The translations under genes were made by a program, and so were the position numbers. From an uncultured Candidatus Saccharibacteria bacterium (GTDB taxonomy: Bacteria > Patescibacteriota > Minisyncoccia > Phycocordibacterales > JACOZG01), in assembly GCA_965230925.1 (NCBI GenBank), contig OZ246403.1, forward strand, positions 68,360 through 132,359: a stretch of DNA of 64,000 nt, given 5' to 3'. The notes below the pieces were generated by a model that ran no database searches, was not told where the DNA came from, and saw only the letters and a program-made list of their open reading frames with translations. This document shows, in pieces, positions 40,409-63,036 of this stretch. Positions within the stretch are counted from its first letter, which is position 1, and each line of letters opens with the position of its first letter.

Positions 40409-40482
40409 TGGTGGACCTACGGGGAGTCGAACCCCGACCTGTTCCATGCCATGGAACCGTTCTACCGCTATACTATAGGCCC
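40409..40482 (-). tRNA. tRNA-Ala (anticodon GGC), with encoded CCA
   Basis: Minus strand: acceptor GGGCCTA/TAGGTCC with G3:U70, anticodon loop ATGGCAT, T-arm CGGGG-TTCGACT-CCCCG. The D-stem has one mismatch. Confidence 0.7.
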
Positions 40483-40631
40483 TTGGAGTTAAATTATCCT
40501 TAATTTTAAGAAAGACGCAACCGAGGAAATGAGTCTCTGGACTTATTTACACAATAATGGTAGTTTAAGTGTCGAGGTTTTGGGAATTGATAGATATTTG
40601 ACAACCGAAAACGGAAAGGAGAGAGAACTCA

Positions 40632-40972
40632 TGGCGACAAACAGAATGGAAAGGGTCCTGAAAAAGGAACTCCGCAATAGAGATTTGCGTCTCGTATGGA
40701 GTCCTAAGCCGGGACACATGAAAAGGGATGAGTTGGTGGTTTTCGGGGCAGAGCAAAAGGTTGGCTGTAAGGCCAAGAAACAACTCAGCATGGCTTCACC
40801 CATGCCTGTGGTCAATGAGTACCATGAAGCTTTTCTTCGGTCGCTCGAGCTGGCTGGTGTTCCGAGAAATTGTCTTCACTCTACCTACGTCCATGTTGGC
40901 CGGGGAAAGATCTGGCCAACCTTTATCGCTCGGATTACTCAGGAGAGTTTCCGGGTGATCAAGGAAAGGTAA
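40632..40972 (+). CDS. Hypothetical protein of 113 aa
   Basis: GGAGAG RBS upstream of the ATG at 40632, inside the longer ORF 40529..40972. Confidence 0.4.
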
Positions 40973-41259: not shown

Positions 41260-42240
41260 ATGTCTCTCTCAATTGGAATTGTGGGTCTGCCAAATGTCGG
41301 GAAGTCGACATTGTTCAATGCGCTGACGGGGAAGGGGGTGCCGGCGGAGAATTATCCGTTTTGTACTATTGATCCATCGGTCGGGATTGTGGGTGTGCCC
41401 GACGATCGCTTGGCGAAATTGACCGAGTTTAGTAAATCGGCAAAGACGATTCCGGCGGCGATTGAGTTCGTCGACATTGCCGGGTTGGTGAAAGGTGCCT
41501 CGAAGGGTGAAGGCTTGGGGAATCAATTTCTCTCGCATATCCGCGAGGTGGATGCCATTCTCCACATGGTGCGAGTGTTTGCCGACGACAAAGTGACGCA
41601 TGTGAACAATAAAGTTGATCCTTCGGGTGATATCGAGACAATTGGTCTTGAACTTATCTTGGCCGATCTCGCGACGGTAGAGAAGCGGCGAAGTAATTTG
41701 CAAAAAGAAGTGAAGCGGGGAGATAAAATGTCAATAATGGAAGATGGGGTGCTCGCGCGAGCAGAAGCTTTATTGAAGAATAGTGAGCCCGTGTCGCGAC
41801 TAACTTTCGCGAGTAAAGATGAGGAAAAAATTTTAAAAGGGATGCACCTCTTGAGTGCGAAGCCGATGCTCTATGTACTCAACACCTCAAGCGCCACAGA
41901 AAATGCGGTGGCAGAGATTAAAGAAAAGTTGAAAGGAGAAATTTTTGTCGAGATTGATCCGGTCTTCGGCACCGGCCTCGATGATCTCATTAAAGCGAGT
42001 TATAAATTACTCGGTCTCGCGACCTACTTTACGACTGGAGAAGATGAGACACGGGCATGGACTTTCAAAATCGGCTCTACGGCGCCAGAAGCGGCGGCGG
42101 CGATTCACACCGACTTCCGCGAGAAGTTTATTAAAGCTGATGTCATCAATTGGCAAGATCTCCTCGCCGGTAAACATTGGCACCTCGAAGGCAAAGAATA
42201 TCTCGTCAAAGACGGGGATGTAATTGAGTTTAGGATATGA
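41260..42240 (+). CDS. ychF: Ribosome-binding ATPase YchF (compact)
   Basis: G1 GLPNVGKSTLFNALT, G3 DIAGLV, and C-terminal TGS domain. 326 aa. Confidence 0.9.
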   Translation: MSLSIGIVGLPNVGKSTLFNALTGKGVPAENYPFCTIDPSVGIVGVPDDRLAKLTEFSKSAKTIPAAIEFVDIAGLVKGASKGEGLGNQFLSHIREVDAILHMVRVFADDKVTHVNNKVDPSGDIETIGLELILADLATVEKRRSNLQKEVKRGDKMSIMEDGVLARAEALLKNSEPVSRLTFASKDEEKILKGMHLLSAKPMLYVLNTSSATENAVAEIKEKLKGEIFVEIDPVFGTGLDDLIKASYKLLGLATYFTTGEDETRAWTFKIGSTAPEAAAAIHTDFREKFIKADVINWQDLLAGKHWHLEGKEYLVKDGDVIEFRI

Positions 42241-42261
42241 AAAAACAAAAAAAATAATCGG

Positions 42262-42286
42262 GAGACACGAGGTCTCCCGATCAAAA
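42262..42286 (-). terminator. Hairpin plus A/T-runs, usable as a terminator for the minus-strand gene 42304..42717
   Basis: tcgggagac acgag gtctcccga flanked by long A-runs on + (T-runs on -). Confidence 0.55.
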
Positions 42287-42303
42287 GAAGGCTTGTTGGT
42301 AAC

Positions 42304-42717
42304 CTAAGTTTTCATCTTTAGGCCTCCCCATTTAATCTCTTTCCTCCGGTAGATAGTTTCTGGTGACAAAGCAAAGAGTTGGGTTACAACCCAAGACTGG
42401 GTTTGCTCGTTCTTGAGGAACAATTCCCCCAAGAGGGCCTGGATATTGGTCTCCAGAAGCGGCGCTTTTACTGCCGCGTTTTGCAAGCCGGTGACGCCAA
42501 CAATGAAATTCAACCCGGCAAGGTACTTACCCGAGGAGGGAAAAATTCCCCTGGTTTCAATTTCAATGTCGTGGACGTTTAGTTCTTCCCCGTTGATGCC
42601 GTTTGAGTGCGCCTCCGGAAACATCCCAAACAAGAGCCTCTGTAAACGGAACTGGAATTCAGCGTTGGTTCCAACATTGGCCAACTCAGAAACGTAATTC
42701 AAACGCAAAGTAATCAT
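42304..42717 (-). CDS. Hypothetical protein of 137 aa
   Basis: Strong promoter in repeat copy 1 and an RBS AGGAAAGGCGGGAG. Confidence 0.5.
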   Translation of the reverse strand: MITLRLNYVSELANVGTNAEFQFRLQRLLFGMFPEAHSNGINGEELNVHDIEIETRGIFPSSGKYLAGLNFIVGVTGLQNAAVKAPLLETNIQALLGELFLKNEQTQSWVVTQLFALSPETIYRRKEIKWGGLKMKT

Positions 42718-42756
42718 AACTCCCGCCTTTCCTAAACATTTTGATCGTCACCATGA

Positions 42757-42800
42757 CGACCTCTGCCGGAGAATTATACAGATTTATGACTTCTTGTCAA
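42757..42800 (-). promoter_or_regulatory. Consensus sigma70 promoter on the minus strand (TTGACA, 16-nt spacer, TATAAT), inside a 44-bp repeat (copy 1)
   Basis: Plus-strand tgtcaa at 42795-42800 and attata at 42773-42778. The segment cgacctctgccggagaattatacagatttatgacttcttgtcaa recurs at 43359-43402 with 2 mismatches. Confidence 0.65.
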
Positions 42801-42812
42801 CCTAGATATGAA

Positions 42813-42846
42813 AAACCGGCCGAGAGTTTCGGCCGGTTTTTGGGAA
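42813..42846 (-). terminator. Bidirectional hairpin terminator
   Basis: aaaaaccggccga gagt ttcggccggttttt. Confidence 0.65.
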
Positions 42847-42877
42847 CTTGTGGGAGGGTGAAGAACAGGAAGGTGTC

Positions 42878-43330
42878 TCACTCGGCGAACAAGCTGAGGC
42901 ACTTTCCACGGGGTAGCGAGGCGCTGGCCTGCCAACCACCAATGTTGAGTCTGAAAAAAACAGGATCTCCTACGTCCCCGTCGATCGTCAGTTCCGCCTT
43001 CTCCACCAGAACAAAAGACAGGGCCTGCTTTAATCGAGACACTGGATCAAACCCGGTACCGCCCAGATCGTTTACTGAACGGAGAAAGAGGTTTAGATCG
43101 ACGGTTACATCTCTTGGTACGATAGCGAGCTCGAGCTGTCTATCGAAGAGAATTGTGGGATATGGTTCGTCCCCGAATGGGTCCTGCTCATCATCAAAAA
43201 TTAATTCGACTCTCCATTGTCCCCGCACATAATCGGGAAAAATTGAGCAGAAGAGATCTTTCACCAACGTAACCCCAGACGGTTTGATTGTCTTTATCCT
43301 TCCCCAGCCATTAGTGTCCTCAATGTGCAT
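42878..43330 (-). CDS. Hypothetical protein of 150 aa
   Basis: RBS AAGGAGGTG. Promoter in repeat copy 2. Confidence 0.5.
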   Translation of the reverse strand: MHIEDTNGWGRIKTIKPSGVTLVKDLFCSIFPDYVRGQWRVELIFDDEQDPFGDEPYPTILFDRQLELAIVPRDVTVDLNLFLRSVNDLGGTGFDPVSRLKQALSFVLVEKAELTIDGDVGDPVFFRLNIGGWQASASLPRGKCLSLFAE

Positions 43331-43358
43331 GTCGCACCTCCTTTTTTCAATTTCGAGT

Positions 43359-43402
43359 CGCTACAACAGCGACCTCTGCCCGAGAATTATACAGATTTAT
43401 GA
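43359..43402 (-). promoter_or_regulatory. Consensus sigma70 promoter on the minus strand (TTGACA, 16-nt spacer, TATAAT), repeat copy 2
   Basis: Plus-strand tgtcaa at 43397-43402 and attata at 43375-43380, with the same surrounding 44-bp sequence as copy 1. Confidence 0.65.
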
Positions 43403-43459
43403 GTTCTTGTCAAGCAAATGATTTTTTCTTAGGTTCTGCTAAACTTCTGTAAATTAGAC

Positions 43460-46117
43460 ATGAAAGGCAAGAAAAAAACCTATTTACTCGTTGAGTTCCC
43501 GTATCCATCCGGCGATGGTTTGCACGTGGGTCATGTGCGTAGTTACACGGCGATGGATATTGTGGCGCGGAAGCGGCGAATGCAGGGCGAAGAAGTAATG
43601 TACCCAATGGGTTGGGACGCTTTTGGTTTGCCCGCCGAGAATTACGCAATCAAAACTGGCATTAACCCCGCCATCACGACAAAGAAAAATATCGACACTT
43701 TCCGCCGACAGCTTAAGGCTTTGGGAATTTCTTTTGACTGGAAACGGGAGGTGAATACGACCGATCCGAATTATTACAAATGGACGCAGTGGTTATTCTT
43801 ACAATTCTTTAAACAAGGTTTGGCGTATAAATCGAAGTCAGAAATTAATTGGTGTCCAAAAGATAAAATTGGTCTCGCGAATGAGGAGGCGATTGGTGGC
43901 GTGTGTGAGCGTTGTGGGACGAAAACCGAGAAGCGCGAGAAAGAACAATGGATGCTCGCGATTACGAAGTACGCTGATCGACTTGATAAAGATCTTGATC
44001 TCGTGGATTACCCCGAGCCGGTGAAGTTGCAACAGCGCAACTGGATCGGGAAAAGTGAGGGGTGGGAAATTGATTTCGATAATATTAAAGTTTTTACCAC
44101 CCGGCCGGACACCATCTTCGGTGCGAGTTTTGTGGCTATTGCGCCGGAGTTAGCGAAAAAGTTAACGGGCAAAGATTTTGGTATTAGGGTTGATAATGAT
44201 CGGGAAAATAAGGAGAAAGTGGGTGCTGATACTGGTTTGCGGGTAAAGAATCCGGCCAGTGGCGAAGAATTGCCAGTGTGGGTCGTGAATTACGTCTCGG
44301 CCGACTACGGCACCGGCGCCATCATGGGCGTGCCTGCTCACGACGAACGTGATTTTGAATTTGCCAAGAAATACAACTTGCCAATTAAAGCCGTGGTAAT
44401 GCCAAGCCTAACTGATTACTCTAATCCACCGCGGGAAGGGAAAGAAAACACTTTCCGCAATATGGTGCTCGGTATTCTGCACAATCCAAAAACAAAAAAA
44501 TATCTGGTTCTGAAGTGGAAGAAACAGCCGTGGATCGGTTTTGTTACCGGAGGAGTTGAAGAAGGAGAAAATCATGCTGAAGCGATGAAACGTGAAATCG
44601 CTGAAGAGACTGGTTATACCAACACCAAATTGGTGAGAAGCTTAGGAATGACTGAGGCGTACTTTTTTGCCGCGCACAAAGATGTGAATCGTCGAACTCA
44701 TGGTGAACACTTCTTGTTTGAACTACTTGATGAAACCAGAAATGAAGTGAGCAAAGAAGAGCAAGAATTGTATGATTTTGAATGGCTTTCTTTCGACGAG
44801 CTCAAAGCGACGCGATTGCAACACACTGAGTCGCCAATGCTCTTAGACCGAATCGCCACGGGAAAAGATTTTTTCACCGGCTCGGGCCGAGTTTTCAACT
44901 CGGGAGAGTTCTCTGATCTCATGAGCGACGAGGCGAAAGAGGAAATCGCCAAAGAAGTAGGCGGGAAAAAGGTGACGACATATAAACTCCGCGATTGGGT
45001 GTTTAGCCGGCAGCGGTACTGGGGTGAGCCAATTCCAATGATTTATTGCAATGATTGCGGGTGGCAGCCGGTCCCGGAGAAAGATTTACCGGTCAAATTG
45101 CCGAAGATGGATAAATATCAGCCAACGGATAATGGCGAATCGCCACTCGCGAATATTAAAAAGTTCGTGGAAACAAAGTGTCCAAAGTGTAAGAGCAAAG
45201 CGCGCCGAGAAACAGACACAATGCCCAACTGGGCTGGATCTTCTTGGTATTACCTCCGGTACACTGATCCCAAAAACAAAAAAGAATTTGCGAGCAAGAA
45301 AAATCTTGAACATTGGCTGCCAGTAGACTGGTACAACGGCGGCATGGAGCATACCACACTTCACCTGCTCTATTCCCGTTTCTGGCACAAATTCCTGTTT
45401 GATCAAAAGCTTGTGCCGGGCAAAGAACCGTATGCCAAACGCACATCGCATGGTCTCATTCTCGCTTCTGATGGCGAAAAGATGAGTAAATCGCGGGGGA
45501 ATGTAATTAATCCCGATGAAATTGTGAAAATGTATGGCGCCGACGCCCTGCGGCTCTACGAAATGTTTATGGGCCCCTTCGAGCAGGCGGTCTCATGGCA
45601 GACTGAGAGTATTATTGGCGTGAAGCGCTTCTTGGAGCGAGTGGAAAAAGCGGGGAGGAAGGTGAGTAAAAAAGCTTCTGATCACCAGCTTGATATTTTA
45701 ATCAACAAAACTGTTCAGAAAGTGAGCGATGACATAGAAGCGATGCGCTTCAACACCGCCGTGAGCGCGCTGATGATTGCACTCAATGAACTGGAGAAGG
45801 CAGAGAAAATCCCAGCTAAAGTGTGGGAGACTTTCTTAACCCTACTTTCGCCCTTTGCGCCACATATCGCGACCAAACTAAAAGCAGGTAAAAAGTGGCC
45901 AATCTATGACCCGAAATTGGTGGGCGAAGAAAAAAAGAAGCTTTCTGTCCAAATTAATGGCAAGGCTCGGGGAATTCTCGAAGTCTCTGGGGCTGAAACT
46001 GAGGCGGAAATTCTTCAACTCGCTGAACAAGAAGCCAATCTCGCCAAGTGGTTCTCTGGCAAACCTCTCAAAAAAGTTGTCTACCAACCAGGAAGGTTTA
46101 TCAACCTCATTGTTTGA
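43460..46117 (+). CDS. leuS: Leucyl-tRNA synthetase carrying a Nudix-box-containing insertion (~150 aa)
   Basis: HIGH-type motif HVGHV, TTRPDT and GTGAIMGVPAHD editing-domain motifs, KMSKS. A 150-aa insert with a perfect Nudix box (GGVEEGENHAEAMKREIAEETGY) lies between the editing domain and the GRVFNSGEF block. Confidence 0.9.
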   Translation: MKGKKKTYLLVEFPYPSGDGLHVGHVRSYTAMDIVARKRRMQGEEVMYPMGWDAFGLPAENYAIKTGINPAITTKKNIDTFRRQLKALGISFDWKREVNTTDPNYYKWTQWLFLQFFKQGLAYKSKSEINWCPKDKIGLANEEAIGGVCERCGTKTEKREKEQWMLAITKYADRLDKDLDLVDYPEPVKLQQRNWIGKSEGWEIDFDNIKVFTTRPDTIFGASFVAIAPELAKKLTGKDFGIRVDNDRENKEKVGADTGLRVKNPASGEELPVWVVNYVSADYGTGAIMGVPAHDERDFEFAKKYNLPIKAVVMPSLTDYSNPPREGKENTFRNMVLGILHNPKTKKYLVLKWKKQPWIGFVTGGVEEGENHAEAMKREIAEETGYTNTKLVRSLGMTEAYFFAAHKDVNRRTHGEHFLFELLDETRNEVSKEEQELYDFEWLSFDELKATRLQHTESPMLLDRIATGKDFFTGSGRVFNSGEFSDLMSDEAKEEIAKEVGGKKVTTYKLRDWVFSRQRYWGEPIPMIYCNDCGWQPVPEKDLPVKLPKMDKYQPTDNGESPLANIKKFVETKCPKCKSKARRETDTMPNWAGSSWYYLRYTDPKNKKEFASKKNLEHWLPVDWYNGGMEHTTLHLLYSRFWHKFLFDQKLVPGKEPYAKRTSHGLILASDGEKMSKSRGNVINPDEIVKMYGADALRLYEMFMGPFEQAVSWQTESIIGVKRFLERVEKAGRKVSKKASDHQLDILINKTVQKVSDDIEAMRFNTAVSALMIALNELEKAEKIPAKVWETFLTLLSPFAPHIATKLKAGKKWPIYDPKLVGEEKKKLSVQINGKARGILEVSGAETEAEILQLAEQEANLAKWFSGKPLKKVVYQPGRFINLIV
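44410..44880 (+). other. Nudix-box-containing insertion (~150 aa) within leuS
   Basis: GX5EX7REUXEEXGU satisfied at nt 44549-44617. Canonical LeuRS has only about 25 aa at this position. Confidence 0.65.
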
Positions 46118-62067: not shown

Positions 62068-62095
62068 TTGACAGGAAAATTGATTCATGTATACT
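62068..62095 (+). promoter_or_regulatory. Near-consensus sigma70 promoter (TTGACA, 16-nt spacer, TATACT)
   Basis: ttgaca at 62068-62073 and tatact at 62090-62095. Confidence 0.55.
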
Positions 62096-62099
62096 ATCG

Positions 62100-62433
62100 G
62101 GCAGATGTTGACCACCACGCGATGGTCACGAACCAGCCGGTAAGCTTGATTAAATGGTTCACTTACTAGACTGATGAGAGTAGTGCACAGGTAACTGTGC
62201 CCTCGAACCTGATCCCGGGACTGCAGGGAGGGATGCTCGCCATGAGTCTAACTTGGCAAAATCCTCGAGACGGTCGAGGGCATGATGGAAGGATGCGGAA
62301 ACCACGGGGCGCCGCTAAGATCTCCACCATGACACAACGCACCAACCCTGAACCAAATAGTTCTTCGAACTAGATCAAGGGGTTTTGTAACCCACAACAC
62401 CGCTGGAGCAATTTTGCCCAGCGGTTTCTCTTT
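62100..62433 (+). ncRNA. Candidate noncoding RNA of about 330 nt, bounded by a promoter and a terminator; identity unresolved
   Basis: No ORF over 46 aa. Internal hairpins (gtgcacag gtaact gtgccc; ctcgagacggtcgagg). Terminator ccgctgg..ccagcgg followed by tttctcttt at 62400-62433. Confidence 0.4.
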
Positions 62434-62484: not shown

Positions 62485-63036
62485 ATGGAGGAACATGATG
62501 AAGAAATTGTCCCCGAGGACGAGAATGAAATGGGCGAGGCCGCCATTAAGAAATTGCGTGAGCGGGTGAAGCGGGCGCTGGAGGAAAAGCAAGAATATCT
62601 CGATCTCTCGCAACGACTGAAGGCAGATTACTTAAATTTAAAGAAAGAAACGGAAAGAGAAAAAGGAGAGATCAAAAGTTGGGCGACGGCAAACGTCTTA
62701 CTTGAATTATTAGGAGTCGCCGACAGCTTCGAGATGGCGCTCGGCAATAAGGAATCGCTGAAGCAAGTTCCGGAGAATTGGTTGAAAGGTGTAGAATATA
62801 TTTATCAAAAATTACAAAGCGTTTTTAGAGATCACAAGCTGGAGGAGTTTAAACCAAAACCGGGCGATACTTTTAATCCCGAAACGGAGCAAGCGGTAGA
62901 ACAAGTGGCTACTGATGAGGAAGACAAAGATAATACAGTTACCACAGTGATTCAGGCGGGTTATAAATTGCATGGGAAGGTGGTCCGGCCGGCGCAGGTG
63001 AAGGTCGCGAGTTGGCAATTAGAAAAAAATAATTAA
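62485..63036 (+). CDS. grpE: Nucleotide exchange factor GrpE
   Basis: Coiled-coil N-terminus and the GrpE core (ANVLLELLGVADSFEMAL). Confidence 0.8.
   Translation: MEEHDEEIVPEDENEMGEAAIKKLRERVKRALEEKQEYLDLSQRLKADYLNLKKETEREKGEIKSWATANVLLELLGVADSFEMALGNKESLKQVPENWLKGVEYIYQKLQSVFRDHKLEEFKPKPGDTFNPETEQAVEQVATDEEDKDNTVTTVIQAGYKLHGKVVRPAQVKVASWQLEKNN

Follow-up and report, generated by a model that had tools for sequence, protein, structure and literature searches.

The 64-kb stretch of DNA from an uncultured Candidatus Saccharibacteria bacterium that was analysed here (the window, to whose positions all coordinates refer) contains two small open reading frames (ORFs) between ychF and leuS, ORF1 of 137 amino acids (aa) and ORF2 of 150 aa. 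Both are located on the minus strand, opposite to ychF, leuS and the majority of the window genes, as described in an earlier note on this DNA, and each is preceded by a copy of the same 44-nt direct repeat (Table 1). In our view it is probable that they are accessory genes with strong expression signals, each monocistronic and both placed in a gap of variable content, and that ORF1 is a recent insertion that carries a copy of the ORF2-type promoter. The locus is a fairly ordinary case of lineage-specific accessory genes, ORFans with a duplicated promoter, and it is not a new system.

The copies of the repeat are identical at 42 of 44 positions and their starts are 613 nt apart. Such a match is not expected by chance, being found in 0 of 100 shuffles of the window. 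Read on the minus strand, each copy contains TTGACA and TATAAT separated by a 16-nt spacer, which corresponds to a consensus score of 12/12. No other site in the 64-kb window reaches this score; three sites that do were present in 644 kb of related loci. It is well supported that the repeat is a predicted consensus sigma70-type promoter in duplicate. As the copies are positioned at an equal distance from their genes (83 nt from the start of the -35 hexamer to the ATG in both units), parallel strong expression would be the natural reading. The repeat with its two mismatches and the TTGACA-16-TATAAT arrangement had been recognized in the earlier note, which placed the second copy at 43359-43402; its true position, 43370-43413, is 11 nt higher. 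From the high and co-regulated expression that had been proposed, the duplicated promoter and the parallel strong expression it would imply can be retained, and evidence for a regulon was not found in the 64-kb window or in the public collections scanned.

In common with consensus sigma70-type promoters, the copies have perfect -35 and -10 hexamers 16 nt apart, an AT-rich upstream region and a position in front of a ribosome-binding site (RBS) and an ORF. They differ from these in that the spacer is 16 nt instead of the optimal 17, in that TG directly abuts the -10 hexamer and does not form a canonical TGn extended -10, in the lineage-specific GGCAGA that follows 3-5 nt after the -10, and in that their activity is predicted from sequence. 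A literature search on promoters of the Candidate Phyla Radiation (CPR) gave nothing useful.

In the window, five promoter-like sites have GGCAGA at 3-5 nt past a -10-like hexamer: those at 576, 3791 and 62100 on the plus strand and those at 42767 and 43380 on the minus strand, the latter two being those of the repeat copies. The three plus-strand sites precede unrelated products and one of them also has a hairpin after it; sites 576 and 3791 have CTAAWAATAGGGGCAGA in common. The signature was absent from 19 strong promoter-like sites of relatives in the 644 kb of related loci. GGCAGA may be a lineage-specific signature of the start site or of the initial transcribed sequence. Because it recurs at other promoter-like sites of the window, the element is in part a general signature. 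Two copies of the whole 44-nt element are present in the 64-kb window, and no further copies were found in viral contigs or in a set of representative genomes that does not include the source genome. A scan of the representative genomes for the promoter core yielded 29 unrelated promoter look-alikes from many phyla, none of which (0/29) has TCTCSGGCAGAGGTCG downstream. The possibility that the element is generic, raised in the earlier note, consequently appears to hold for the GGCAGA part, a predicted strong-promoter or start-site signature of the genome in general, and not for the full 44-mer; the spacer and TCTCS are specific to the ORF1/ORF2 promoter pair.

A word-indexed search of about 5.8 billion protein clusters revealed one homologue of ORF2, P0003, which is 61% identical and encoded on the 962-nt contig L003. 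No homologue beyond P0003 was obtained in a profile search, and no match in the JGI metagenomes with the ORF2 profile. In the codon alignment of the two genes 43, 32 and 74 differences fall at codon positions 1, 2 and 3, respectively, with dN 0.27, dS 1.82 and dN/dS of about 0.15 (NG86). This distribution and this ratio indicate that ORF2 is a genuine protein-coding gene under purifying selection. The antisense ORF at 42741-43232 was rejected as a shadow frame: stop codons interrupt it in the aligned relative, and the substitutions are distributed in agreement with the frame of ORF2.

In L003 the ORF2 homologue lies tail-to-tail against the end of ychF. Its terminator directly abuts the ychF end (…GAGTTTAAGATATGA/AAAACCGGCCGAG…, the slash marking the junction) without an ORF1 in between, and Term2, the terminator of ORF2 in the window, is homologous to this terminator common to both genes. 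In the window a relic of the ancestral junction of ychF stop and terminator is preserved next to Term2 and immediately beside P1, the promoter of ORF1, with the real ychF stop 571 nt away. An 11-nt direct repeat, GATATGAAAAA, brackets the 571-nt ORF1 unit, one copy at the end of ychF and the other in the relic. Because the ancestral junction is intact beside Term2 and GATATGAAAAA is duplicated, ORF1 is taken as inserted. Most likely it represents a recent insertion with a fresh copy of the ORF2-type promoter. Its GC content does not mark it as foreign (0.46-0.52 against 0.48 for the window), and a second copy of the ORF1 unit was not found in the window. A transposable element or miniature inverted-repeat transposable element was considered and rejected: the 11-nt direct repeat is present, but inverted repeats other than the terminators were absent and no transposase or recombinase was seen nearby. 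With regard to an integron-type gene cassette, no integrase was seen among the called neighbours within about 10 kb.

The L003 contig also provides a measure for the age of the promoter copy. Upstream of the ORF2 homologue it reads TTGACA, 16 nt, CAGAAT, 12 nt, an 8-bp hairpin starting with GTCG, an A-rich leader and GGAGG. This promoter matches that of the window at 27 of 44 positions (61%), the -35, part of the -10 and the spacing being kept. As the orthologous promoter is only 61% identical, the 95% identity of the two copies points to a recent copy or to gene conversion and not to long-term constraint.

An alternative is that a regulator binds the spacer or start region of both promoters as a co-regulatory operator, so that selection keeps the 44 nt identical, which would make ORF1 and ORF2 a switchable pair induced by stress or another condition in place of constitutive genes. 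This would agree with the identity that is unbroken from the -35 to about +10 and then stops abruptly, with the contrast between two mismatches in 44 nt (95% identity) and 16/39 (41%) across the remaining leader, and with the recurrence of GGCAGA at other promoters. However, nothing in the orthologous promoter of L003 indicates that an operator is conserved, none of the adjacent genes encodes a regulator, and the palindromic stems differ between the copies, which suggests an RNA structure rather than a shared DNA site. As the identity is also explained more simply by a recent copy, an operator is unlikely.

The resemblance of the two units could alternatively stem from an ancient tandem duplication of the whole ORF2 unit, after which the coding regions diverged into cryptic paralogues while the promoters remained alike by gene conversion or selection. 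The two ends of one unit indeed recur in the other in unchanged order, and no additional bases have to be assumed at the junction; moreover, the leaders are of equal length (39 nt), have the hairpin at the same position and are identical at 16 of 39 positions. On the other hand, the units have only the 44-nt promoter and the 11-nt GATATGAAAAA in common. The coding regions are dissimilar at the protein, six-frame and DNA level: ORF1 and ORF2 show no detectable relation (BLASTP E 2.2, hhalign probability 0.15%, shuffle z -0.3), and no other similarity between the units was found in six frames or in DNA (interior z 1.5-1.7). Their terminators are unrelated and the predicted secondary structures of the proteins differ. 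In addition, the absence of ORF1 from L003 would require a precise later loss there, and an 8-nt relic of ychF that is not under selection would not outlast such divergence. A tandem duplication is for these reasons quite unlikely.

For the recent insertion, the following course of events is proposed. ORF2 would be the older resident, tail-to-tail with ychF and with one bidirectional terminator for both, the state seen in the single relative. Later a unit of 571 nt, consisting of terminator, ORF1, leader and promoter, would have been inserted exactly at the ychF stop codon, with duplication of 11-14 nt of the ychF junction. As to the direction and mechanism of the copying, the ORF1 promoter would be of recent origin, copied either within this locus or out of an allelic cassette carried by a very close relative. 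Each protein would as a result be under a strong promoter equivalent to that of the other, in two independent high-expression units that encode small soluble lineage-specific proteins in a small-genome bacterium of the CPR/Patescibacteria kind. A more far-reaching version, to which we give a slim chance, is that ORF1 is very young and either arrived as a cassette at the ychF stop by an undescribed cassette-exchange mechanism at a hot spot of reduced CPR-type genomes or originated de novo in situ; in either case ORF1 and ORF2 would found new highly expressed families. A DNA precursor of ORF1 was searched for in relatives and none was found, and exact-sequence look-ups of ORF1 and YchF returned only four contigs of the same strain with 100% identical DNA.

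Apart from its self-match, the word-indexed search of the 5.8 billion clusters returned no homologue of ORF1. The sole extra match, P0004, came from a full HMMER scan of 1.84 billion representatives and was rejected as spurious, since it is a translated perfect tandem repeat. In this protein of 1152 aa a 74-aa unit occurs 14 times without any deviation, and the E value of 8e-13 to ORF1 results from the summing of 14 weak matches; summed-repeat matches of this type need a manual check in ORFan searches. Altogether, no homologue of ORF1 was found among about 15 billion proteins. The probability that a frame of 137 codons is open by chance is about 6e-4 at the local base composition, ORF1 occupies the interval from promoter to terminator, and among the six frames its own ranks first in codon usage (score 0.13). 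On these three grounds ORF1 is probably coding.

It could nevertheless be argued that ORF1 is fortuitous and that the 571 nt yield a non-coding or spurious transcript. The lack of homologues, with a tandem-repeat artefact as sole match, would be in line with this, as would the AlphaFold2 model (predicted local distance difference test, pLDDT, 50), the odd spacing of the Shine-Dalgarno (SD) sequence and a codon score below that of every core gene (0.15-0.41). Yet such a frame is rarely open by chance; its start lies at the same 83 nt from the -35 as that of ORF2 and its end 20 nt short of the terminator, and its codon score is near those of other small genes (-0.14 to 0.50) and above that of ORF2 (0.04), which is under selection. 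We therefore regard a non-coding ORF1 as very unlikely.

Both terminators show the features of Rho-independent terminators, a GC-rich hairpin and a U-tract past the stop codon, with folding z values of -5.2 for Term1 of ORF1 and -4.0 for Term2. Rfam gave sub-threshold terminator-like matches only on the locus. The claim that each gene has its own hairpin terminator was thus borne out. Because Term2 separates the genes and a promoter precedes each of them, ORF1 and ORF2 form two monocistronic units and not an operon. Term2 resembles known bidirectional terminators between convergent genes in its A5-stem-T5 form and in having served ychF and the ORF2 homologue in L003; it differs from these in that it no longer adjoins ychF in the window, where ychF ends at Term1. 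The ancestral bidirectional terminator is now 571 nt away from ychF, and the hairpin that now follows ychF (42240-42283) has a U-tract only on the opposite strand, that of ORF1. Because of this one-sided U-tract, ychF transcription may read antisense into ORF1.

Both units are laid out alike, with a predicted consensus promoter, a GGCAGA start region, a predicted 5' stem-loop, an A/G-rich leader with RBS, the ORF and an intrinsic terminator. From the end of the repeat to the ATG the leader measures 39 nt in both units. The repeat closes with GGCAGAGGTCG, of which GGTCG forms the 5' foot of a stem-loop of 7-8 bp that was found in the minimum free energy (MFE) and in the centroid folds of both leaders. 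In its distal part the stem has another sequence in each copy, but pairing is retained in both. When the leader of L003 was included, 24 of 24 hairpin cells paired in the three leaders, with three pairs altered on both sides, against 17-79% in slid controls. This is suggestive of a hairpin that is maintained by compensatory changes in the three sequences. Stem-loops at the 5' end are known to stabilize mRNA in the leaders of Escherichia coli ompA and of Bacillus subtilis aprE and ermC, and the hairpin at the mRNA 5' end may stabilize the message likewise. The likeness consists of a 7-8 bp hairpin that lies within a few nt of the predicted 5' end and has behind it an A-rich leader, free of structure, with an SD sequence, and of the compensatory changes in three leaders; the difference is that the stabilizer role is here read from three sequences only. 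The strong RBS that had been ascribed to each gene is fully borne out for ORF2 alone, where GGAGG lies 6 nt before the ATG; in ORF1 the region is purine-rich (GGAAAGGCGGGAG) and GGGAG is 2 nt from the ATG.

The region between ychF and leuS was compared in relatives, namely 22 metagenomic ychF loci (among L033-L112) with YchF proteins that are 50-65% identical. In all 22 loci ychF is followed by leuS on the same strand with 0.9-5.5 kb of differing genes in between. The commonest content is a family of multi-pass membrane proteins of about 330 aa, present in 15 loci and absent from the genome of the window; a family of about 190 aa, an acidic-repeat membrane protein encoded on the opposite strand and others also occur. 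None of the gap genes of these loci is related to ORF1 or ORF2. The order ychF, leuS and a Sigma70_r4/HARE-HTH protein is syntenic across a broad clade. This shows that the ychF-leuS gap is an evolutionarily variable spot, and bears on the question in the earlier note whether the pair is variable or island-like. That note had also made its interpretation dependent on conservation in relatives; ORF1 was found nowhere and ORF2 in one relative, by which, together with the recurrence of GGCAGA at unrelated promoter-like sites, its case is weakened.

The arrangement is reminiscent of the duplication or capture of promoters by ORFan genes, newly acquired or newly born, in genomic hot spots, with a lineage-unique ORF beside a copy of its neighbour's promoter and a variable gap content between syntenic flanking genes. 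It differs from such cases by its compactness (571 nt), its own terminator and the direct target duplication of 11-14 nt, and by the lack of a recombinase, transposase or inverted repeats nearby.

As stated in the earlier note, the two proteins have no recognizable domains: they did not match Pfam, PADLOC or NCBIfam, and PHROGs gave nothing but one family of unknown function at E 0.033. A PDB sequence search with both returned noise only (E ≥0.27). The description of the proteins as beta-rich was not upheld, since the AlphaFold2 models are poor (pLDDT 50 for ORF1 and 49 for ORF2) and the low-confidence model of ORF1 is mixed alpha/beta. In the fold search against BFVD the template modelling (TM) score of the matches remained ≤0.31. 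Viral contigs and phage and plasmid collections contained no protein or DNA match to ORF1 or ORF2. A type II toxin-antitoxin pair was rejected, as the genes have separate promoters and a strong terminator in between; no toxin-antitoxin domain of PADLOC or Pfam was found in either protein. The suggestion that ORF1 and ORF2 are structural subunits (phage tail tube, Hcp-like or capsid-associated), or that they belong to a phage or defence island, was likewise rejected and is extremely improbable. No profile or fold supports it, models of this quality are too poor for fold claims, and neither phage nor type VI secretion system genes were found among the neighbours, which are housekeeping genes (enolase, PPDK, ychF, leuS and a sigma-like protein). 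The best guess is that ORF1 and ORF2 are dispensable accessory proteins, involved for example in host, phage or cell-cell interaction.

Several points weigh against two strongly expressed units of which one is a recent insertion. The function of promoters and hairpins is read from the sequence alone. The hairpin energies are unexceptional by themselves (z -0.2 to -1.5), and the covariation in the hairpin, which comes from three sequences only, was matched by 50 of 500 shuffles. The SD spacing of ORF1 is non-canonical, and as this ORF is without homologue and has a poor structure model, its coding status is indirect. The ancestral state is taken from a single 962-nt contig, L003, and the count of two copies of the element covers 64 kb of a 716-kb genome.

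If the insertion of ORF1 with its promoter is true, the locus would be a compact example of the way in which a minimal genome gains an expression-ready new gene, the newcomer bringing or copying the consensus promoter and 5' hairpin of its neighbour and landing in a variable gap. It would also offer two testable promoter/leader modules for organisms with barely characterized transcription signals. Its value lies mainly in annotation and evolution.

Table 1. Positions of the features of the ychF-leuS region in the window (pI, isoelectric point).
Feature	Position	Strand	Description
ychF	41260-42240	+	
Direct repeat GATATGAAAAA, left copy	42234-42244	+	last ychF codons, stop, A-tract
Term1 (ORF1)	42240-42283	-	12-bp GC-rich hairpin 42255-42283 and U-tract 42240-42254 (U8GU6); abuts ychF stop codon
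ORF1	42304-42717	-	137 aa, pI 6.7 (near-neutral), soluble, no hydrophobic segment
ORF1 leader stem-loop (predicted)	42743-42761	-	GGUCGUCA/UGACGAUC; position as in ORF2, distal stem sequence different
Predicted promoter P1 (ORF1)	42757-42800	-	-35 42800-42795, -10 42778-42773, GGCAGA 42767-42762
Relic of ancestral ychF-stop/terminator junction	42804-42824	+	AGATATGAAAAACCGGCCGAG, 21/21 identical to ychF end in L003
Direct repeat GATATGAAAAA, right copy	42805-42815	+	inside junction relic
Term2 (ORF2)	42811-42841	-	A5-stem-loop-T5, 8 GC-rich bp, bidirectional in form
ORF2	42878-43330	-	150 aa, pI 4.6 (acidic), soluble, no hydrophobic segment
ORF2 Shine-Dalgarno GGAGG	43337-43341	-	6 nt before ATG, A-rich tract upstream
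ORF2 leader stem-loop (predicted)	43356-43374	-	GGUCGCUG/UAGCGACU; first 5 nt within repeat
Predicted promoter P2 (ORF2)	43370-43413	-	-35 TTGACA 43413-43408, -10 TATAAT 43391-43386, GGCAGA 43380-43375
leuS	43460-46117	+	

Some further observations were made in the window. At 62068-62432 on the plus strand, a strong promoter-like site, TTGACA-16-TATACT, is followed by GGCAGA and a hairpin, by a stretch of about 330 nt in which no credible ORF is present, and by a terminator at about 62398-62432, upstream of a grpE-like gene at 62485. The region had no Rfam match even at E ≤1, no tmRNA was found in it by ARAGORN, and its MFE z is -2.3. Possibly it represents an unclassified non-coding RNA or a long leader. 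Between tRNA-Ala (40409-40482) and ychF an ORF of 147 aa is located at 40529-40972 on the plus strand, in which no Pfam domain was found and which gave no match by tblastn against the related loci; it is a possible further candidate for a lineage-specific gene.

For leuS no SD sequence is present (43414-43462), and a -10-like element, TG-TAAATT, is found at 43450-43455, 4 nt upstream of the ATG. This suggests that the leuS mRNA may be leaderless; the putative leuS promoter would stand back-to-back with P2. The LeuS protein itself contains a NUDIX hydrolase domain at residues 335-460 (PF00293, E 4e-17), of which a literature search turned up no description. The insert directly follows a truncated editing domain (PF13603, profile positions 1-146 of 185), and the same insert was seen in LeuS of 12 related metagenomic loci.

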